From a virus (lineage: Duplodnaviria; Heunggongvirae; Uroviricota; Caudoviricetes): 42,753 nt of DNA. The translations under genes and the position numbers were made by a program. Every line of letters begins with the position of its first letter. Position 1 is the stretch's first letter. The notes under the pieces are model-generated. The model worked only from the letters and a program-made list of their open reading frames with translations. It was not told where the DNA came from and made no database searches. Positions 20,584-41,201 of the stretch are shown here, piece after piece. Location: the IMG/VR virus record IMGVR_UViG_2663763477_000009; one strand, given 5' to 3'.

Positions 20584-22053
20584 TCATGAGACCTTTCCAT
20601 TGCTTACCGCCAGCATATGTCCAGCGACGTAGCTGACAAGAATCATAGCTATGCACATTAAATATTTTGCAATGTCATTAAGCACTCCGAATGACGATGC
20701 AGTAGCCCCAAAACCTAATCCCATATTATTAATACATGCAGCCACTGTTGCAAATGATGTAAGAAAATCATATCCCATACCATTTAACACCAGTATAAAA
20801 AACACCGTGAAGAGAGTATAAAGAAAAAAGAAACTCCATACAGACCTCATTACACGATCTGTAACTATCTTCCCTCCTACATTTACACTCAACAACGCTC
20901 TGGGATGAGAAAGCTGATTTATCTCGTGTTTGCTTTGTTTGAAAAGTATAAGAAATCGAAGTGACTTAATTCCACCACAGGTTGAACCTATACATCCCCC
21001 AAAGAAACTTGACAACAGCAAAAACACTATCGTGTGCGTGGGCCAGTTTGCATAATCCTGCGTAGCTAAACCATTATCAGTGAGCATGGAGCTGGCAAGA
21101 AAAAACGAATGAATAAAACTTCCATGCAAGTCATACATACCTATATGCCAGACCTGGAAAGAGGTAACAATGATCACCCCTAAGGCTATTAACAGAAAGA
21201 AACGAAGTTCAATATCTCTGATTAAAGGTTTTATCGTTTTTCTGCTAATAACAATATACCAAAGAGTGAAGTTGAAAGCCGATAGCAGGGAAAAAGAACC
21301 AGCCACCAGCTCAACCAAATAGTTATTAAAATATCCGATACTCTCGCTATGAGTTGAGAAACCACCAAGCGAAACTGTGGAAATCCCGTGACAAATAGCA
21401 TCAAACAAAGGCATTCCTGCAAGTCTATAACAGACAATACAAGCAATACCTAATAAAGAATAAGTTATCCACAGTGTCCGTGACGTATCGGCCAGGCGGG
21501 GAGTGAGTTTGTCATCCTTAAATGGCCCCGGCATTTCTGACTGATAAAGCTTTGCACCACCAATACCCAATAATGGCAATACTGCAACCGCCAGAACAAT
21601 AACTCCTAAACCACCTATAAAATTTAACTGTGACCGATAGTACAAATATGCCCGAGGTAATGAACTAACATCATCAATTACAGTTGCTCCTGTTGTTGTT
21701 ATTCCAGAAACCCCTTCAAACAGAGCATCAATGAACGTTAAATTAAGTTCTGAGTCAATCCATAAAGGGAATGCACTAATAACAGAAAACAAAATCCAAA
21801 ACATTACAATTATAATAAACCCATCACGGGTACGTAATTGAATGCCAGATTTCTTAGTTGTATACCACGCTCCGCCACCAATGCAAAAAAATATAACGAA
21901 AGTTATAAAGAAAACGAACAGGCTTTTTTCTTTATAAAACAATGCTACAACCATTGGTGGCAACATTGAAAGACTATAGAGCCAAACCAGGAACCCACAC
22001 ATATGAGTAACAACTCTTACATGAGATGTATTCATATCTAAATATTCTTTCAA
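20584..22053 (-). CDS. trkG: TrkG copy 2 with a replaced C-terminus (last 19 aa exchanged for 17 unrelated aa at the duplication junction)
   Basis: Identical to copy 1 until ...CIAMIL, then diverges where the unit joins the endolysin 3' fragment. Confidence 0.8.
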
Positions 22054-22172: not shown

Positions 22173-22649
22173 TTACTTTAAACACTGCTCGGTTATGTAT
22201 TGCTGAGCACCTTCAAGTTGGGCCTGCATCATTACCAGTCGTTCCCGGAGGGTGAAATAATCCCGTTCAGCGGTGTCTGCCAGTCGGGGGGAGGCTGCAT
22301 TATCCACGCCGGAGGCGGTGGTGGCTTCACGCACTGACTGACAGACTGCTTTGATGTGCAACCGACGACGACCAGCGGCAACATCATCACGCAGAGCATC
22401 ATTTTCAGCTTTCGCATCAGCTAACTCCTTCGTGTATTTTGCATCGAGCGCAGCAACATCACGCTGACGCATCTGCATGTCAGTAATTGCCGCGTTCGCC
22501 AGCTTCAGTTCTCTGGCATTTTTGTCGCGCTGGGCTTTGTAGGTAATGGCGTTATCACGGTAATGATTAACAGCCCATGACAGGCAGACGATGATGCAGA
22601 TAACCAGAGCGGAGATAATCGCGGTTACTCTGTTCATTGCTGACCCCAC
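22173..22649 (-). CDS. Spanin inner-membrane subunit Rz (copy 2, part of the lysis cassette)
   Basis: 158 aa; differs from copy 1 at three residues; its start overlaps the endolysin stop. Confidence 0.85.
22232..22417 (-). CDS. Spanin outer-membrane lipoprotein Rz1 (copy 2), embedded in Rz
   Basis: 61-aa lipoprotein; one Ala-to-Pro difference from copy 1. Confidence 0.8.
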
Positions 22650-23131
22650 AAACAGATTTCACGCTCAATCTCACGACGAGTCATGAGACCTTTCCATTGC
22701 TTACCGCCAGCATATGTCCAGCGACGTAGCTGATCACATGCGCCTTTGATATCGCCCTGGTTTATTTTGCGAAGAAGCGTCGATGTTCTGAAATTGCCAG
22801 CACCCACGTTGTAAACGAATGAGTAAAGAGCGCCGCGCGTTGTTTCCGGTATATCGACTTTGATGTACGGGTTAATTTGTCTGGCGACAGTGGCAAGGTC
22901 TTTATTCAAGAGTGTTTTGCATTCTGCTTTGGTATACGTTTTACCGAGCATGATGTCTTTTCCTGTATGCCCGTGACATACAGTCCATACACCAACAATA
23001 TCTTTGTATGGTATGTAGCTGACACCTTCCAGACCATCGTTACCACTTGGGCCAGTGATTAACACTGATGCTATAGCAATTGCTCCGCCACCAATAGCAG
23101 CAGCAACGACTTTTCGTAATGATGGAGGCAT
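22634..23131 (-). CDS. SAR endolysin (phage-21 R-type lysozyme)
   Basis: 165 aa with an N-terminal Gly/Ala-rich signal-anchor-release segment ([18 protein letters not shown]) followed by a lysozyme domain. Confidence 0.85.
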
Positions 23132-23346
23132 TATTCACCTCTCGCAGCCTTGCGCTTATCTTCTTTAATCTTGAAATAAAGGTTTGTCAGGTACGTCAGC
23201 AGGCCAAATACCAGACTACCCAGCACACCGATTGCAGCCCACTGTGACGGAGTTACTCTATCGAGCAACTGTAAAAACCAGTAGCCAGCACTGCCTGCGG
23301 AGGTGCCGTAGGCAATGCCTGTTGAAATTTTGTCCATGGATTTCAT
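23131..23346 (-). CDS. Pinholin (phage-21 S-type) with a dual-start motif
   Basis: Reads [14 protein letters not shown]... with two TM segments; Met1 and Met4 give the antiholin/holin pair; the track ORF extends a further 19 codons upstream. Confidence 0.8.
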
Positions 23347-23445: not shown

Positions 23446-23472
23446 AATATAAAAAGCTCGCCGTAGCGAGCT
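23446..23472 (-). terminator. Intrinsic terminator between the lipoprotein morons and the holin gene
   Basis: Perfect 7-bp stem agctcgc/gcgagct with loop cgta, followed on the minus strand by UUUUAUAUU. Confidence 0.5.
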
Positions 23473-23597: not shown

Positions 23598-23993
23598 CTA
23601 ACCTCGCATGTCAAAGCCAGATTTCTGAAAATCTCTGTAGACTTCCGGATTGTTGAAGGCCGGAAATTTGGCTTTATGAGCTGCGGACTTTATCGCTTCG
23701 CAATAGGCTTTATCACCGTTACTGGTAGATATTTTTAACGCCGTGCCATCCTGAGAGAATTCCATATGCAACCTGCATTTTTTCCCTTTCCAGTTATGCG
23801 GCTCATCAAGTTTGGCATTAATTGCAGCTCTGATTCCCCGCGCTTGCGCCCCCCATTCATCCTGATCATCCCAGCGTCCTGAACTGCAACTACCTGTAGC
23901 AGTAGTTTTGTGGCAATCTGAAGGGTGTAAAGGTGTGCATCCCGCAACAAAACCGACCCAAAAAGTCAACATAACGATTTTCTTTAATCCCAC
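23598..23993 (-). CDS. Outer-membrane lipoprotein with a TolA domain-III-like C-terminal domain (divergent paralogue)
   Basis: GTG start with GAGGAG RBS; signal peptide plus lipobox VAGC; C-terminal domain aligns with the pattern of the downstream paralogue (KxCxLxM...G...L...CEAIKSAAHKAKFPAF...EVYRDFQ). Confidence 0.7.
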   Translation of the reverse strand: MGLKKIVMLTFWVGFVAGCTPLHPSDCHKTTATGSCSSGRWDDQDEWGAQARGIRAAINAKLDEPHNWKGKKCRLHMEFSQDGTALKISTSNGDKAYCEAIKSAAHKAKFPAFNNPEVYRDFQKSGFDMRG

Positions 23994-24143
23994 TTCTTGC
24001 TCCTCAATCCATTAAAATCTCAGCAATAGTAGTTGTTACGTCCGCCACTGGCTCAGAGCTGACTATCCGCTAAATTTAGCTCAGTGCCGTAGCTGTGTCA
24101 GAACAAACCTAAGCCGAAACCGTTTATTACAAAACAATAAATA

Positions 24144-24572
24144 TCAGGGTTTAAAATCCAGCACCCCATTTTGAAATACTTTATATACTTCCGGCGAAGG
24201 GGGGGCAGGTATATCAGCATTCTTTATCGCATTCATCGCTTCACGACATAAATCGAGGTCTCCACTTTCTCTTTTAACCTCCAGTAGAAGGCCATTCGGG
24301 GCCATATGCATTCTCAGTGTACACTCTTTTCCTGAATACTTACTCGCATCCCCGAACTGTTTTTCGATGGCGCTCTTGATTTGATGGGCATACAGACGGA
24401 TATCCTCACTAACATCAGAAGTACGTTCAGATGAACTCACATACTGTGTCTCTATTGCTTTATCGGAGTAATATGATGTACGGTCATGATAATTTGTCGA
24501 TACAGCATCAGTGCACCCGATAATAATCCCACTAATAATCAACGTAAGAATTGATGCGCTACGAAAACCCAT
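24144..24572 (-). CDS. Outer-membrane lipoprotein with a TolA domain-III homologue
   Basis: Signal peptide plus lipobox IIGC; the C-terminal 85 aa (YAHQIKSAIEKQFGDASKYSGKECTLRMHMAPNGLLLEVK...PSPEVYKVFQNGVLDFKP) closely parallel my recollection of the C-terminus of E. coli TolA. Confidence 0.75.
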   Translation of the reverse strand: MGFRSASILTLIISGIIIGCTDAVSTNYHDRTSYYSDKAIETQYVSSSERTSDVSEDIRLYAHQIKSAIEKQFGDASKYSGKECTLRMHMAPNGLLLEVKRESGDLDLCREAMNAIKNADIPAPPSPEVYKVFQNGVLDFKP

Positions 24573-25508
24573 TTTTCCTCACATATGTCATATAGTAAAG
24601 GATTATATATACCGTTGTTTTGGACGCTCAAACAGCGAATCAGATCAAATAAAACGCACATTTGTTAACATTTACACAAAGTCTGCGTGGGATATTCTGA
24701 AAGAATATCCATAATGTGGAGAGAATCTATTGAAGTGCATGGTGCCGGGTGCCTCCCGGTGAACAAAATGTTCGTGATACCTGTCGGCGACAGAAAAGGT
24801 TAATGGTATCACCCCACCGCACAGGGGGATTCACCATGCAGGAGTTTTCTTAGCAAACTCACTGCGCGCCCGGCAACTCCCAACCACATAAAATGCGGAG
24901 TTTGTGGCATTTATGCATATAACTCGCAGGAATTATCTTAAAAAACTGATGTCGATCCGGATTAAAAAGAAGCAGGTCATCATCAGATGACTGGAAAAAA
25001 GGAAAACAAAAAATACTCATCATACAGTTTTGATTGCAGGGATGAGCCTGCTATGCACAATATGCAGAATATAAGCAAGATAAAAATATGCAGGCATATT
25101 ATTTCGGATCTTGTTATTAACACAACCTTTTTAATAATCATTTGGCATACAATAAACCAGCCCAAAAAGAACCGCCTAAACAGGCGGTTGGTCAATACAA
25201 AGGATGCTTCGTCTTTATTATAGTAATCTGAGGCGTCGGGTGTCTTGTATCAGACAACATATTGTCCCGCTAAACAGCGAATTACAAACCACCCTGCAAT
25301 GATCTCTCATCTCATTTTATATGAGTTGACGACATCAGGATAACGCATCATCAGCCCCTGCCAAGAAATATCAAAACTCCCGCCAGCAATGTGTTATCAC
25401 AATATTGTAAAAAAAACACAGCACCGAAACTATAACTGGTCTCTGTTATAATTTGGAGCAGAAAGACCAGTTGCCCAACTAGCAGCATTCTCCCCTGCTT
25501 TCCTGACG

Positions 25509-25616: not shown

Positions 25617-26159
25617 TCAAGCCATTTTCTCAGCAAATGATTCACGCATGGGAATATATAGGGCATACTCAGCAACAGCTAACCAATTAGCAATCCGTTT
25701 TTCGCATGTGCTAAAACACCACTCTGGGTGTGCATCATTTAGCAATTCAGCCATTTTGCGCTTAGTCATCCCCCGCCCTTCATAGCGTTGCCGGAGAATG
25801 CAAATCAATCCTGGATGCTCTGCCAGCACCTCACTTATGACTCGATCAATACATAACGCCTCTGCATCAGTACAATGCGCCAGCCAGCTCTTTTGCTTGC
25901 CGTTGATCATCTCTCGCAAAAACGCTTCCAGCTCAGCTTTCTCTATTCCCGCTTTTTTCATTCTGCGCAGGGCTTCATTAATGGCTGTTTTCGTCAGTTT
26001 TTTGGATGCCAACAACTGATTGAACATATTCCCTGACCTGCCACCGCCAATATACGACCAGCGCCCCCACATACGTAGTTTTCCCTGAATCCAGACACTT
26101 TCCAGCGTGGTGAGGCGAAGGTGTTCTCCGCTTTTTCCTGTATTCGTTGGGTAAATCAT
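25617..26159 (-). CDS. Late-gene antiterminator Q-like protein (putative)
   Basis: 180 aa, Cys pairs, located at the end of the nin region directly upstream of the late/lysis region; assigned mainly by position. Confidence 0.5.
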   Translation of the reverse strand: MIYPTNTGKSGEHLRLTTLESVWIQGKLRMWGRWSYIGGGRSGNMFNQLLASKKLTKTAINEALRRMKKAGIEKAELEAFLREMINGKQKSWLAHCTDAEALCIDRVISEVLAEHPGLICILRQRYEGRGMTKRKMAELLNDAHPEWCFSTCEKRIANWLAVAEYALYIPMRESFAEKMA

Positions 26160-27045: not shown

Positions 27046-27325
27046 TTCTCAATCTCTCGATGGCGCAGCGCAGCAGATGCCAGTTGTTCAGGCTGACGAA
27101 TAAAGTATAAATAAACTGGCTATGGTGTAAAGCCCCACATAGCATGAACAAACACTACATATCAAATAGCTGGTACAAGGATAGAAATACGACACTTATT
27201 ATTAAAAACGATTAGATAAATTACATTTTAATGTTATGCAAAAGTTCTTTTTTATCATAACATTTCAATAAAAGCATTACAGATGCAATCATCCCGTCAT
27301 CATCAATTATTTAAGGTGGTTAAAC

Positions 27326-27412
27326 ATGGAAAATAACAAGTTCGCACATCTCGCTCCTTTTTTATCCGTAATCCTTTTCGCTTGTTGTTTTATATGGGCA
27401 TTATTTTTATAA
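27326..27412 (+). CDS. Small hydrophobic peptide (28 aa), candidate membrane peptide or type-I-toxin-like
   Basis: ATG preceded by AAGGTGG at about 6 nt; reads MENNKFAHLAPFLSVILFACCFIWALFL (one predicted TM helix); sits in an AT-rich intergenic region. Confidence 0.35.
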   Translation: MENNKFAHLAPFLSVILFACCFIWALFL

Positions 27413-27820
27413 AGTAGCCACATGATAAGTTGCTGGAATCATATTTCCCACTCAAGTCATTAACATTTGATAAGATATATCTAAAAGGACGCCTTTACAT
27501 TATTTATGCGTATATAATTTATTTATATACACAGTAAAGGTATCCTGGGAAAATATTTATCGTTAAAAAATACATCATAAATAATTAAGCTGAAATTTCA
27601 GAACACAACTAATACACACAATAAGGTTCAGTAACAGTAATCTATGTGGACTACATCGAGATTTTTTGATTAAACTTTAATAACTTATTCCTAACACACA
27701 GAATGCATAAACTAAAAGTAAAACAAATAGTTATACGAAAAACAACCATATTTATTCTATCTTCTCCTCTAATCAACATATCAATTATGTGTTTCATAAC
27801 AGCTTGACATAACCCTCCAA

Positions 27821-27843
27821 AAGATGCATTTTTAATGCATGTT
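27821..27843 (+). promoter_or_regulatory. NsrR-type operator (11-1-11 inverted repeat) upstream of the yeaR-like gene
   Basis: AAGATGCATTT-T-TAATGCATGTT, close to the NsrR consensus as I recall it; a TTGACA hexamer lies just upstream at about 27804-27809. Confidence 0.5.
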
Positions 27844-27858
27844 TTGGAGGAGGTGGTT

Positions 27859-28197
27859 ATGACACACAAGAGAATTCCTAAAGATTGGGTAATCAAACGC
27901 TCAACTCCGTTCTTCACAAAAGAGAACGTACCTTCAGCGTTATTAACACATCATAATACAGCAGCAGGTGTTTTTGGGCAGTTGTGCGTAATGGAAGGCA
28001 CTGTAACATATTATGGTTTTACTGATGAGAATGCTACTGAACCGGAGATAAAAGTAGTCATTAATGCTGGCGCTTTTGCAACAAGCCCACCACAATACTG
28101 GCACCGTGTTGAACTAAGCGATGATGCTCAGTTTAATATTAACTTTTGGGTCGCTCCAGACTTTTCGGGCGAAAAAGTCTATAGCACCAAAAAATAG
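27859..28197 (+). CDS. YeaR-like protein (DUF1971 family)
   Basis: 112 aa from the ATG after a GGAGGAGG RBS; RSTPFFTKENVP...GQLCVMEGTVTYYGF...FNINFWVAPDF parallels the chromosomal YeaR sequence as I recall it. Confidence 0.75.
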   Translation: MTHKRIPKDWVIKRSTPFFTKENVPSALLTHHNTAAGVFGQLCVMEGTVTYYGFTDENATEPEIKVVINAGAFATSPPQYWHRVELSDDAQFNINFWVAPDFSGEKVYSTKK

Positions 28198-28817: not shown

Positions 28818-29819
28818 TTAGTAATCTGCGTGTTTCGCACTTTTCAGAAATGCTTTCATATTTTCATTAGGTCGCTCAATTTCGAAGTTACTTCCATATA
28901 ACTCTTGTAATTTTGGCCATAACTTACTTAATAACCCTCTCCTGCGATAAAATGGATGTATCCAAACGGTAGATAGGTACGGAGAATTTGCATTTGAATT
29001 GTTTATTGTGACCAGCCCAACTAAACATTGTCGATAACCACTATTATCCATTGATTGTATTTCTTCGACGAATGGATACGCGATTACATCAGTCCAACCA
29101 TGATCGGTTGTATCCCATTGCATTCCGTCATGACATTCCTTCGACTGATAGCGGCGTAAAGCTACACACGCGAGCTTTTGCCAATCTGGAGAATTAATTG
29201 TGATCTCTTCATCGTATGACGCGCCTATTGGAGCGGGTATTGGTCTGATTAATCCAGCATGGCATTCATCATAGAACTTCATGTTTCCCTCAGAAACGTT
29301 GTGTACGTTGGGTTGCTCCATGTGTGCGCCATTCAAAAATAGCTCTGATAGTAGTGTATCTACACTGTAATCTTTATTGATTATTGTCGGCTTAGAGTTT
29401 TTCTTATTAAGGCCGCGAGTAACGATTTTTTGATCAATGTTAACAACATGGAATAATCCGTCGGGGAGGCTAGCGAACCACGATGGGGCATCGGACCAGA
29501 ATAGCATGCCTTTTGTACTTCTTAAGAGTTTAATTAAGTTAATACAAGCTTCTTCACTAGTCTTGCCGTTGATGCGAAGTATGTTAGGACTAAAGTAATA
29601 TTCATCCATATCAGGGAATGCAGCTTCGCAAAACTCCTGTACATAATTTAGCACCTGGATTCTACAGAGATCATCATAGCTGGTAATAACTAAGGGGGTA
29701 TCTTCATTACTATTATGATTATCAATAATGCAATCTATAGCGAGACTTACTGCTTTGCGTATCACTTCAGTTGAATCTAACGACTCTAAAAATTTTGTCT
29801 TTCGTGTGCGAATATCCAT
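28818..29819 (-). CDS. Cargo gene B: hypothetical protein with a GNAT-like C-terminal region
   Basis: 333 aa in an AT-rich block; C-terminus VWIHPFYRRRGLLSKLWPKLQELYG resembles the GNAT acetyl-CoA-binding motif; start lies 15 nt after the stop of gene A. Confidence 0.6.
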   Translation of the reverse strand: MDIRTRKTKFLESLDSTEVIRKAVSLAIDCIIDNHNSNEDTPLVITSYDDLCRIQVLNYVQEFCEAAFPDMDEYYFSPNILRINGKTSEEACINLIKLLRSTKGMLFWSDAPSWFASLPDGLFHVVNIDQKIVTRGLNKKNSKPTIINKDYSVDTLLSELFLNGAHMEQPNVHNVSEGNMKFYDECHAGLIRPIPAPIGASYDEEITINSPDWQKLACVALRRYQSKECHDGMQWDTTDHGWTDVIAYPFVEEIQSMDNSGYRQCLVGLVTINNSNANSPYLSTVWIHPFYRRRGLLSKLWPKLQELYGSNFEIERPNENMKAFLKSAKHADY

Positions 29820-29834
29820 GTATGACCTGCGCTA

Positions 29835-30857
29835 TTAAAATTCATGAATGAACGGTTTGTCATCTGGTTGCAAAATGGTGGTTTTATTCGTTGCTACATT
29901 TAAACTGTTGTAGAGCATAATTGCCAGGTTCGATGCATTTTCAATCAGCGTTTCAAGATCCTGGTCTGTAATCACTACGAGGTTCCCTTCTTTATCCTTT
30001 CCACCACGATGCACTAAGTGATTTCGATTGAGGGTTGCCAATTCAATAGCTTCTATCGGACAGTCTTTTTGTACTTTTATATCGAATGTAGCTTCATAGC
30101 GGTCGATTACCTTTTTAGTGCTATGCCAGCTTGCACTGATCAAGTGTTCCTTGATTGACCTGATTAGCTCTCCCCTAATTTTCTCGATGGGTTCACCCTT
30201 GAAAGGCAACGCAGCAATATCTTTGCTTACTTTAAATTCAGTCTTACCTTTTTCTATACAATTGGCTATGTAGACATCATCTTTCTCTATAGAATTAATG
30301 AATAGCTCAACATAAAGCGTTTCCAAAGCTGTAATAACATTCGTGTAGAGCAAACTAAGCAAGTGGTTTTTTTGCTGTTGTTCAGTTTTATCTTTTGCAA
30401 GTTTTTTTATTTTATCGATATTATCAATGAATTTTAAATACGGATTACCGGAAGACGTTACAGCGTCGTAGATATCATCATCGTACCAATCATCTATATT
30501 ATTTGAGTTTCCAGACCAGTCAAAACATTGTGTTTGTAATTCATCTACTAATTCCTCAATATACTCAGATTTAACATATTGACCGAAGATGGATTGTAGT
30601 TCTTCGCTCGCATCATACGGCCCGCCATATATGTAAGCATAGCCACCTTCTCTACTTTCATACGGACAAGCATTTGCCGGATCTTCAAAGTTTTCAAAGA
30701 ACCAGTTTTTCATTACTTCGAGTTGATCTTTTTTGCTTATGTATTTTAAAGATTTTAGTGGAACTTTCTTTCCATTAACCTCGAAAACAATTTTCACGAT
30801 GTAACGCTCCCTTGTATCAATTGCGCAACTATTATACCACAGCGAAATACAGGGCAT
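29835..30857 (-). CDS. Cargo gene A: hypothetical protein with a HEPN-like R-N-x3-H motif near the C-terminus
   Basis: 340 aa from the ATG preceded by AGGAGG; motif LATLNRNHLVHRGG in a helical C-terminal region; AT-rich codon usage unlike the flanking prophage genes. Confidence 0.6.
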   Translation of the reverse strand: MPCISLWYNSCAIDTRERYIVKIVFEVNGKKVPLKSLKYISKKDQLEVMKNWFFENFEDPANACPYESREGGYAYIYGGPYDASEELQSIFGQYVKSEYIEELVDELQTQCFDWSGNSNNIDDWYDDDIYDAVTSSGNPYLKFIDNIDKIKKLAKDKTEQQQKNHLLSLLYTNVITALETLYVELFINSIEKDDVYIANCIEKGKTEFKVSKDIAALPFKGEPIEKIRGELIRSIKEHLISASWHSTKKVIDRYEATFDIKVQKDCPIEAIELATLNRNHLVHRGGKDKEGNLVVITDQDLETLIENASNLAIMLYNSLNVATNKTTILQPDDKPFIHEF

Positions 30858-30995
30858 AACCTGCCTCCTTAAACTAACATACCATGAGCCAGCAATGTCC
30901 GCTATTGGCACAAAGCGGACAACCACGCTAGCTCTCCCCTGTGCCAGAAAAATGTCAATTTACATATGAACTAATGCTCTTTGATCTAGTAACGT

Positions 30996-35442: not shown

Positions 35443-35598
35443 ATGCAAAAAATCGACCTCGGCAACAACGAATCCCTGGTGTGCGGCGTGTTCCCCAACC
35501 AGGATGGAACGTTCACTGCCATGACGTATACCAAAAGCAAAACATTTAAAACCGAAACTGGTGCGCGCCGATGGTTGGAGAAGCACACAGTAAGCTAA
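35443..35598 (+). CDS. Small Rac early protein (YdaF/YdaG family, 51 aa)
   Basis: Reads MQKIDLGNNESLVCGVFPNQDGTFTAMTYTKSKTFKTETGARRWLEKHTVS; below the track cutoff; convergent with sieB. Confidence 0.45.
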   Translation: MQKIDLGNNESLVCGVFPNQDGTFTAMTYTKSKTFKTETGARRWLEKHTVS

Positions 35599-36083
35599 CG
35601 ATTAAAACGTCTACTCCTGCTGTTCCAGAATAACTTCATAAAATGGGAGTATTTTTCGGTGACGAGATAATAAGAACAGTTTGCGCTATCACTCTGATGT
35701 TGAATGATGCCCTTCCGTTCTAATTTTTTCATAACCGGGTTACGGCAAGGAGAAGTGATAATAAGATTTCCTGTTTTAAGGAAATCTTTAAATACAGCGA
35801 TTTCTTTCTCAGATAAACGAAGCAATACTCGTTGCTCTGGTAGTAATGAATAATGCTTTTGAATATGTGCTCGCAATCTTGAGAAGGAAATGGCGACCAC
35901 GAAAGAAAAGGCAAAAACGATAATCTGAAAGAGCCAAGGTATTTCAGTATAAGCATTGAATGCGACAGTAAACTCTTTCGGTATCAGCCAGAGAGTGAGA
36001 CCAAAAATGATAATCGTATACATAAGTATTTCGAGTGGCTCGTTAGCAAAAAGTTTCAACAATGGAGTAAATACATCCAACAT
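35595..36083 (-). CDS. sieB: Superinfection exclusion protein B
   Basis: 162 aa from the internal Met (MLDVFTPLL...), with hydrophobic TM segments; same size and position as Rac SieB. Confidence 0.8.
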   Translation of the reverse strand: MLDVFTPLLKLFANEPLEILMYTIIIFGLTLWLIPKEFTVAFNAYTEIPWLFQIIVFAFSFVVAISFSRLRAHIQKHYSLLPEQRVLLRLSEKEIAVFKDFLKTGNLIITSPCRNPVMKKLERKGIIQHQSDSANCSYYLVTEKYSHFMKLFWNSRSRRFNR

Positions 36084-36524
36084 ATCAATAACTCTCAACT
36101 GTAAGGGTATTGAAATGTTAACACAAGCTCTCGCTGTAGGGGTATAGCCGAGACCACCGAAGCCCGGAGGTGGTGAAATAAAACCGGGCACAACACGAAG
36201 GCGCATTTCCGATATCCATAAAGAGTCGGTCTTGTCTGTTAAATTTAAATGGTGGGAGTGCGCCTCCGGTTGTAAATAACGACATTGCTGTGTGTAGTCC
36301 TGGCGGCATCAGTTTTTTTCTTGAAGTTCGGCTGATGTCCGCCCTTTTTAAAGTGAATTTTGTGATGCGGTGAATGCGGCTAAGCGCACGTGGCACAGTT
36401 AAAAGTCATGTTAGTCCTTATTGGTTTGGGTGGGAAAGCCGACTGTAATTGTTAACTGGTTGCAGTCACCTGGAGGCACCAGGCACCGCATCAACAAAGT
36501 TCATTTGTAAAAATGGAGATAATT

Positions 36525-41012: not shown

Positions 41013-41201
41013 ATGTATAAAATTACCGCCACTATTGAAAAGGAAGGTGGCACTCCTACTAACTGGACAAGATATTCAAAATCTAAACTAACGAAATCAG
41101 AATGCGAAAAAATGCTCTCAGGTAAAAAAGAAGCAGGCGTTTCCAGAGAGCAGAAAGTAAAACTGATAAATTTTAATTGCGAGAAACTTCAGTCCTCGTG
41201 A
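41013..41201 (+). CDS. ydaC: YdaC-like small protein
   Basis: GGAGG RBS 5 nt before the ATG (MYKITATIEKEGGTPTNWTRYSK...); lies between ralR and xisR. Confidence 0.6.
   Translation: MYKITATIEKEGGTPTNWTRYSKSKLTKSECEKMLSGKKEAGVSREQKVKLINFNCEKLQSS

Follow-up and report, generated by a model that had tools for sequence, protein, structure and literature searches.

TolA domain III lipoproteins of a Rac-like Escherichia coli prophage as candidate outer-membrane decoys for Tol-dependent colicins and filamentous phages

The window analysed here is the whole 42,753-nucleotide (nt) stretch of the virus record IMGVR_UViG_2663763477_000009 (IMG/VR; Caudoviricetes), which is a Rac-like Escherichia coli prophage. 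Between its Q-like antiterminator gene and its holin gene lie two intact genes, each of which, as read from the sequence, encodes a complete domain III of TolA (TolAIII) behind a lipoprotein signal peptide and a linker. One product has 142 and the other 131 amino acids (aa), and the list of open reading frames (ORFs) confirms both on the minus strand at the coordinates where a first-pass annotation of the letters had placed them (Table 1). Proteins of this kind form a broad family that has already been named for its domain but is uncharacterised. The reading that we favour, tentatively, is that they act as decoys which are tethered to the outer membrane and intercept group A colicins and the g3p protein of filamentous phages. 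We set out below the evidence for the domain, its predicted fold and its export, before weighing this reading against other roles.

The relationship of both proteins to the C-terminal part of TolA is evident at the level of profiles and of single residues. Against PF06519, the TolA C-terminal family, for which the gathering score is 25 bits, the 142-aa protein scored 82.6 bits (E 2.4e-23, residues 49-140) and the 131-aa protein 54.6 bits (E 1.3e-14, residues 44-125). When compared with the sequences in the PDB, the 142-aa protein aligned without a gap over residues 334-421 of E. coli TolA (E about 5e-28), the C-terminal LDFKP included, and the 131-aa protein aligned with residues 341-419 (E about 5e-9). 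These alignments correspond to identities with E. coli TolA domain III of 52/88 (59%) and 27/79 (34%), respectively, and they bear out the parallel with the TolA C-terminus, down to LDFKP in the 142-aa protein, that the first-pass annotation had drawn. The Cys363/Cys388 pair of TolA is kept in both proteins, with the equivalent positions invariant in the aligned family, and the C-terminal stop of both coincides with the end of TolA. The nearest relatives of the 142-aa domain are the TolA domains of enterobacteria, amongst which E. coli TolA ranks top in percent identity (60%). In PHROGs, both proteins fall into phrog_5772, to which no function is assigned. They share 29% identity with each other (E 2e-18), and so the earlier description of them as paralogues holds as far as homology goes; they are not, however, a local duplication, because they represent two separate lineages, each of which is found singly elsewhere. 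A recent tandem duplication is ruled out by the same observations.

Whilst both proteins belong to the TolA_C family, neither is TolA. Both are without domain I, the N-terminal inner-membrane anchor, and without the long Ala/Lys/Glu-rich helical domain II, and their genes stand outside the tolQRA-tolB-pal operon, between a phage Q-like gene and the holin of a Rac-like prophage; on the anchor, on domain II and on the operon, then, TolA is not what is found. The models for full-length TolA held by NCBI point the same way, since the match of both proteins is confined to the last quarter. With the full-length equivalog model NF007065, the 142-aa and 131-aa proteins scored 107.8 and 53.7 bits, both below the cut-off of 213. 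With TIGR02794 (cut-off 59.45), the scores were 75.6 and 47.2, and the 142-aa protein, although above the cut-off, covers only positions 265-362 of the 362 in the model.

The structures of both proteins were modelled with AlphaFold2 from family alignments and the models superposed on PDB entries with Foldseek. The predicted local distance difference test score (pLDDT) is about 90 over residues 51-142 of the 142-aa protein and over residues 40-131 of the 131-aa protein, and is below 50 across the first 40-50 residues of both. The best PDB matches are E. coli TolAIII structures, with template-modelling scores (normalised to the target) of 0.84-0.96, and the C-terminal domains of TonB are distant runners-up. 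On E. coli TolAIII, the 142-aa model superposes with a root-mean-square deviation (rmsd) of 0.6 Å to 2x9a_B (88 residues) and 0.7 Å to 1tol, and the 131-aa model with 1.0-1.3 Å to 3qdp, 3qdr and 2x9a. Structure prediction had been suggested in the first-pass annotation as a check, and its outcome is in keeping with what was expected there: both proteins are predicted to adopt the TolAIII fold, with three helices and a three-stranded sheet, together with the disulfide pair.

TolAIII is known as a hub that binds its partners by β-strand addition. The edge strand β3, together with helix α2, provides the site for the TolB N-terminus, colicin N (ColN) and g3p-N1, and colicin A (ColA) uses the opposite edge, β2, at 375-LLDIKP-380 plus K368, K379 and K396 (PMC3365938, PMC4339652, PMC7391070). 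In the 142-aa protein, the surfaces used by these known ligands appear to be largely kept. Its β3 edge reads GVLDFKP where TolA has APLDFKP, so that L417, D418, F419, K420 and P421 are identical, and 11/16 residues of helix α2 are the same in the two proteins. The ColA box shows a conservative change, from LLDIKP in TolA to LLEVKR, with two of the three cation-π lysines kept.

Both N-termini carry a lipobox, IIGC with Cys20 in the 142-aa protein and VAGC with Cys19 in the 131-aa protein, and in both the residue at position +2 is Thr. We assessed these by a PROSITE PS51257-like pattern, [LVI][ASTVI][GAS]C, which places the Cys at position 15-35 behind a basic n-region; both of the lipoboxes named in the first-pass annotation, with their +2 Thr, fit this pattern. 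The lipobox is kept in 27/31, 114/120 and 91/121 family members in three sets, and its Cys is invariant in the aligned family. In E. coli, Asp at +2 is the signal for avoidance of the Lol sorting system, and none of the 232 lipobox-bearing relatives has Asp there. From the lack of Asp at +2 we infer that both lipoproteins, which are predicted to be exported, are sorted to the outer membrane, with its inner leaflet as the most likely place of their anchor. A linker of 24-34 residues, predicted to be disordered, separates the lipobox from the domain.

Both genes are real and under purifying selection. Across variants, the ratio of non-synonymous to synonymous substitution rates (dN/dS) of the domain is 0.09-0.24 for the 142-aa type and 0.06-0.09 for the 131-aa type, and variants of the 142-aa type at 66-91% identity retain their reading frame and length unchanged. 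The linkers differ in this respect. That of the 142-aa protein is variable, with a dN/dS of 0.5-0.6, whereas that of the 131-aa protein is under unexpectedly stronger purifying selection (dN/dS 0.01-0.10). The latter, CxPLHPSxCHKTTATGSCSSGRWDDQDEW (23865-23936), is Cys-rich, with two additional Cys, and is likewise predicted to be disordered. A reading of this linker as a TolB box, in which SSGRW...W would correspond to DGSGW...W46 of colicin E9, is no more than a loose idea, as only the Trp residues are shared and the spacing is one off.

The 1.4 kb module that holds both genes was found, at a coverage of at least 80%, in 774 of 5,426 complete E. coli genomes (14%), nearly always at an identity of at least 99%. 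It is not typical cargo of sequenced phages: just one of 50,697 GenBank phage records, mEp460_ev081, has the genes, and there the module is surrounded by different Q and lysis genes. By itself, the 142-aa type is present in other lambdoid prophages, as variants of 66-91% identity, always between Q and the holin and after tRNA genes or copies of the RNA element STnc100. Three Q families in all precede TolAIII genes. Since other lambdoid phages lack the module and it stands behind three types of Q, it would seem to be dispensable and mobile. The position taken by the 142-aa type is that of stx in Stx phages, and for one 142-aa-type variant the gene immediately downstream encodes a SASA/DUF1737 esterase; we take this gene to be nanS-p.

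The 131-aa type has a distribution of its own and is found alone on about 600 plasmids, both I-complex and pO157-like. In all five I-complex plasmids examined (IncI1/K/B/O/Z) it lies between nikB and trbC, directly after nikA-nikB; these copies are 88% identical to the 131-aa gene of the window (L001 6004-6435, and also in loci L003, L004, L005 and L007), and the pO157-like copy (L006 7001-7432) lies near toxB. It is not a core gene of I-complex plasmids, as in pESBL nikB abuts trbC without such a gene, and on these plasmids it is therefore accessory. In Enterobacter, the 131-aa type is a stand-alone, conserved, single chromosomal gene. In Serratia, a homologue adjoins GmrSD and HEPN genes, and on the Serratia marcescens chromosome (L012/L013 8001-10736) it lies between nrdDG and a GmrSD_N + HEPN pair, an arrangement which looks like a small defence islet. 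An exhaustive profile search returned 585 cluster representatives at E<=1e-3, and most of the full-length short ones (115-170 aa) have a lipobox. Named relatives come from Enterobacter, Klebsiella, Pantoea, Kosakonia, Serratia, Citrobacter and Rouxiella, and some, including one from Klebsiella pneumoniae, are on plasmid contigs with an IncFII-type repA. In the gene neighbourhoods inspected, no colicin or bacteriocin genes were seen beside family members.

If the lipoproteins are decoys, each would hold a free-standing copy of TolAIII in the outer periplasm on a flexible tether, and a ligand that docked on this copy by β-strand addition would be caught, neither pulled in nor handed on. Because the copy is without domains I and II, without the inner-membrane anchor and without a link to the TolQR motor, the docked ligand would be held at the wrong membrane. 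Ligands that could be caught in this way include the T-domains of the group A colicins, with ColA on the β2 edge and ColN on the β3 edge, and the N1 domain of filamentous-phage g3p; the TolB N-terminus that nuclease colicins recruit is a further candidate. The outcome would be a broad tolerance to Tol-dependent colicins combined with exclusion of Ff/If1-type phages, and the beneficiary would be the lysogen or, for the plasmid copies, the plasmid-bearing cell.

Several lines of background are in keeping with such a role. The invaders bind TolAIII at about 1 µM, compared with 40-200 µM for TolB (PMC3365938, PMC4339652, PMC7391070), and given this difference in affinity a decoy of low abundance could trap invaders with little effect upon Tol-Pal. 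Titration of TolA by periplasmic pIII-N1 leads to colicin A tolerance and to phage uptake that is lower by 4 logs (PMC10424213). Carriage on prophages and on conjugative plasmids fits a gene for exclusion or competition. The pili of the I-complex conjugative plasmids are the receptor of the TolA-dependent phage If1, and PDB entry 2x9a is the complex of If1 g3p with TolA. Levengood-Freyermuth reportedly described, in 1993, colicin tolerance arising from periplasmic TolAIII. By analogy with these cases, it is plausible that both lipoproteins, if expressed in the lysogen, would bind such ligands and give rise to the corresponding phenotype.

A number of observations weigh against the lipoproteins being decoys and need to be considered alongside this. 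In the 131-aa protein both ligand edges have diverged (ALKIST and SGFDMRG) and none of the three lysines is present. The 131-aa type is, moreover, 80-88% conserved across genera with differing TolA and has an ordinary neighbourhood in Enterobacter, which suggests an endogenous partner rather than mimicry aimed at an invader. The N-terminus of TolB is a further expected ligand of free TolAIII, and its binding could be damaging to the envelope. As parts of a late operon, the genes may be expressed mainly in the lytic phase, in which exclusion would bring little benefit, and matches to the promoter consensus are about as dense as in shuffled sequence (11 vs 7.6 ± 2.8 expected). Full-text literature searches found no published report on these proteins, and PADLOC has no model for them.

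Looking beyond the window, it is conceivable, and we put this forward with some reserve, that outer-membrane-tethered TolAIII mimics on Rac-like and other lambdoid prophages, on I-complex and IncFII plasmids and on pO157 make up an unrecognised class of entry exclusion. Such mimics would be flypaper for parasites of the Tol system, bringing group A colicin tolerance and pilus-specific immunity to filamentous phages together in one protein of 130-140 aa. The two lineages of the window would serve different sets of ligands, and the linker of the 131-aa type may supply a second binding site.

The main rival to the decoy reading, which we consider unlikely but which deserves to be taken seriously, is the role of a Tol-Pal modulator. 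Here the tethered TolAIII would bind the TolB N-terminus, or another endogenous partner, and would damp or redirect the TolA-TolB-Pal cycle, with altered outer-membrane stability, vesiculation or capture of Pal at the division site as the effects; under Q-dependent late transcription, the outer membrane might be weakened just ahead of lysis by the pinholin, the signal-anchor-release (SAR) endolysin and the spanins. TolB shares the β3 site with g3p and ColN, and it is this site that is conserved in the 142-aa protein. Mutation of D418 and K420 in TolA gives a tol phenotype (PMC4339652), which shows that the β3 interface governs envelope integrity. The location of the genes could also be read in this way, as they are downstream of Q and directly upstream of the lysis cassette, and late read-through into them is therefore to be expected. 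However, a terminator stands between them and the holin, like that of morons expressed in the lysogen, and with Rz/Rz1 the phage is already equipped with a full set of spanins. Whilst the conserved single chromosomal gene of Enterobacter and the constrained 131-aa linker (dN/dS 0.01-0.10) would fit a host partner, the plasmid and chromosomal copies are unconnected with lysis, and the weak affinity of TolAIII for TolB (40-200 µM) means that high expression would be needed.

It is rather improbable, in our view, that the TolAIII fold serves here as a generic receptor for β-strand addition whose ligand is one not so far associated with TolA, an explanation that would apply mainly to the 131-aa lineage. 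A tailed-phage protein, another class of bacteriocin or a component of conjugation are examples of what might be bound, and the Cys-rich linker of the 131-aa protein may join in forming the binding site. The 131-aa protein retains the fold and not the residues that contact the known ligands, and its linker is more constrained than that of a mere tether would be; its recurrent insertion beside the relaxase operon nikAB in I-complex plasmids, and the size and diversity of the class of short TolAIII lipoproteins (585 representatives), are also in favour of this. Given that β-strand addition relies mostly on backbone contacts (PMC4339652), though, the divergence is compatible with the known ligands, and the gene neighbourhoods vary by lineage and yield no candidate partner.

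The annotation of identical loci in RefSeq implies yet another explanation. In these loci (e.g. NZ_CP033250.1, L002 12199-13005), the Prokaryotic Genome Annotation Pipeline (PGAP) labels the 142-aa gene a pseudogene, 'tolA, incomplete, missing N-terminus', and begins the 131-aa gene at an internal ATG, such that the basic n-region of the signal peptide is lost. That the genes are decaying, functionless fragments of a captured tolA is, however, highly improbable: the PGAP label speaks for it, as does a match to the TolA equivalog models that is limited to their C-terminal quarter, but the 142-aa gene starts at an ATG of its own behind a GAGGA Shine-Dalgarno sequence and encodes a signal peptide with a lipobox, it is found intact, at an identity of 99% or above, in over 770 genomes, its variants keep frame and length with a domain dN/dS of 0.09-0.24, and the architecture recurs across a large family. 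The pseudogene reading is thus contradicted by conservation and dN/dS, and because the ORF is conserved and the dN/dS of the domain is low, we regard the label on the 142-aa gene as an artefact of annotation. The shortened start of the 131-aa gene also looks like an artefact; the plasmid homologues have ATG at the position of its GTG start.

Comparison with known systems helps to define what these proteins would be if they are decoys. With E. coli TolAIII (1TOL, 2X9A, 3QDP/3QDR, 1S62) they share the Pfam family, the predicted α-β-β-α-α-β fold, the disulfide Cys residues and the C-terminal end. They differ from E. coli TolA in having a lipoprotein signal and a short linker and in being encoded outside the tol-pal operon. 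As the signal and the linker replace the anchor and domain II of TolA, the proteins are predicted to hang from the outer membrane and not to be energised by TolQR. Superinfection exclusion by lipoproteins is known from siphophages. Cor of phi80, N15 and HK022 is one such exclusion lipoprotein. Llp of T5 is described as another in a preprint (bioRxiv 10.64898/2026.03.26.714494). In predicted effect the TolAIII lipoproteins would resemble both, yet the target of Llp and Cor is the receptor FhuA, which they bind and plug, whereas the TolAIII lipoproteins would titrate the invader by mimicry of a co-receptor in the periplasm. There is also no sequence relation between them, with searches of Pfam, PHROG and PADLOC giving just TolA_C, phrog_5772 or nothing.

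The closest functional parallel to the proposed decoys runs in the opposite direction. Periplasmic g3p/pIII-N1 involves the same interface between TolAIII and ligand and would lead to the same outcome, but as a mirror image: pIII-N1 occupies the host receptor, while decoys would be extra copies of the receptor domain that occupy the invader. The origins differ too, pIII-N1 coming from the filamentous phage itself and the TolAIII lipoproteins from a tailed prophage or a plasmid. With the morons that lambdoid phages carry between Q and S (stx and nanS-p in Stx phages, nmpC in DLP12), the genes share a position downstream of Q, tRNAs and STnc100-like elements, in a slot upstream of the holin and with a terminator before the holin. 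What sets them apart is the cargo, here a TolAIII lipoprotein, together with a predicted promoter of their own and a GC content like that of the flanks. TolA or decoys are not mentioned in a 2024 review of superinfection exclusion, and a paper on the prophage small RNA (sRNA) svsR makes no link with TolAIII lipoproteins. The domain is already recognised by annotation pipelines, and we did not find the TolAIII lipoprotein described as cargo of the Q-to-S region.

Table 1. Positions of the two TolAIII lipoprotein genes, their parts and the bordering features in the window.
Feature	Coordinates	Strand	Evidence or remarks
142-aa TolAIII lipoprotein gene	24144..24572	minus	ORF, ATG start, GAGGA Shine-Dalgarno, PF06519 match
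142-aa protein, signal peptide (residues 1-19)		minus
142-aa protein, IIGC Cys20 codon	24513-24515	minus	lipobox
142-aa protein, linker (residues 21-54)		minus
142-aa protein, domain III (residues 55-142)	24147-24410	minus
131-aa TolAIII lipoprotein gene	23598..23993	minus	ORF, GTG start, GAGGAG 5' of start, PF06519 match
131-aa protein, signal peptide (residues 1-18)		minus
131-aa protein, VAGC Cys19 codon	23937-23939	minus	lipobox
131-aa protein, linker (residues 20-43)	23865-23936	minus
131-aa protein, domain III (residues 44-131)	23601-23864	minus
Q-like antiterminator (DUF1133)	25617..26159	minus	upstream border of slot; PF06576 E 2.5e-107
P21-type holin	23131..23346	minus	downstream border of slot; PF04971 E 2.1e-35
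Intrinsic-terminator-like hairpin	23455..23472	minus	AGCUCGC-UACG-GCGAGCU then UUUUUAUAUU; between 131-aa gene and holin
Promoter-like sequence TTGAGC-18-TATAAT	24602..24631	minus	about 30 nt upstream of 142-aa gene; 10/12 consensus; prediction
Promoter-like sequence CTGACA-17-TAAATT	24073..24101	minus	spacer between genes, 5' of 131-aa gene; 9/12 consensus; prediction
STnc100-family RNA element	24683..24869	minus	Rfam RF02076, 86.6 bits vs gathering 47; between Q-like and 142-aa genes

The borders of the slot agree with the first-pass annotation, which had placed the pair between a Q-like gene and the holin, with a terminator before the latter. Besides its Pfam match, the Q-like gene matches phrog_753, 'anti-termination protein Q-like' (E 2e-79), and Phage_antitermQ right at the threshold. 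The hairpin ahead of the holin has a fold energy of -13 kcal/mol and a z of -3.67 relative to shuffled sequences. After the holin come a lysozyme gene (22634-23131) and then Rz/Rz1, with matches to Phage_lysozyme and Phage_lysis on the next two genes; in an identical RefSeq locus the annotation here is essD/rrrD. In the related loci L022 and mEp460_ev081 the promoter-like sequence ahead of the 142-aa gene is conserved, and the CTGACA block ahead of the 131-aa gene, with its surroundings, is also conserved upstream of the plasmid copies of that gene. Together with the terminator, these predicted promoters suggest a moron-like layout. The GC content of the module is no different from that of the flanks.

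The stretch of about 1 kb between the Q-like gene and the 142-aa gene is without convincing ORFs. The STnc100 element within it also turns up, one to three times, in the late regions of related lambdoid prophages, where it may stand before or after the TolAIII gene (L022 5704-5877, 6599-6803 and 6854-7061; L017 5444-5634), and its behaviour is that of a repeat of the late region. It is not a dedicated leader of the 142-aa gene, being repeated, variably placed and missing ahead of the P0028 variant. At 25158-25246 (minus strand), some 400 nt downstream of the Q-like gene, there is a promoter-like AAGACA-18-TATAAT with a strong hairpin and T-run (AACCGCCTGTTTAGGCGGTT) no more than about 30 nt behind it; this promoter and terminator may be the pR'/tR' pair on which Q acts.

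The identity of the prophage is apparent from the identical RefSeq locus, where recE, recT, kilR, sieB, ydaT and trkG are annotated. Three Rac hallmarks were seen in the window itself: the RalA antitoxin sRNA (41019-41197, minus strand, 225 bits), a match to SieB (PF14163, E 3e-31) in an ORF of at least 180 aa (35595-36206, minus strand) and the potassium transporter gene trkG (20584-22053, minus strand), which is inserted directly after Rz/Rz1. Elsewhere in the window, two adjoining minus-strand ORFs of 333 and 363 aa (28818-29819 and 29835-30926) are found in the interval from the replication genes to the hok/nin region, near a stretch of low GC content (27050-27950, 25-34% GC). Neither has a Pfam or PADLOC match, and the closest RefSeq locus has another insert in their place (BCCT transporter, LysR, MFS). 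This pair may be further accessory or defence cargo of the prophage.

Whichever of these readings is right, the 'tolA pseudogene' label that the 142-aa gene bears in RefSeq is misleading. Were the lipoproteins to prove Tol-Pal modulators, they would be regulators of outer-membrane stability carried by mobile elements, of which we found none described. If they are decoys, a sizeable share of natural E. coli, namely the 14% of complete genomes with the exact pair as well as the carriers of pO157-like plasmids and of many I-complex plasmids, would have a built-in tolerance to Tol-dependent colicins and filamentous phages that is absent from catalogues of resistance and defence. This would be relevant for decolonisation based on colicins or phages and for competition in the gut, and conjugative plasmids might shield their hosts against the very phages that exploit their pili. 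Decoys of this kind would also offer a natural tool with which to dissect the interactions between TolA, TolB and their ligands at the outer membrane.

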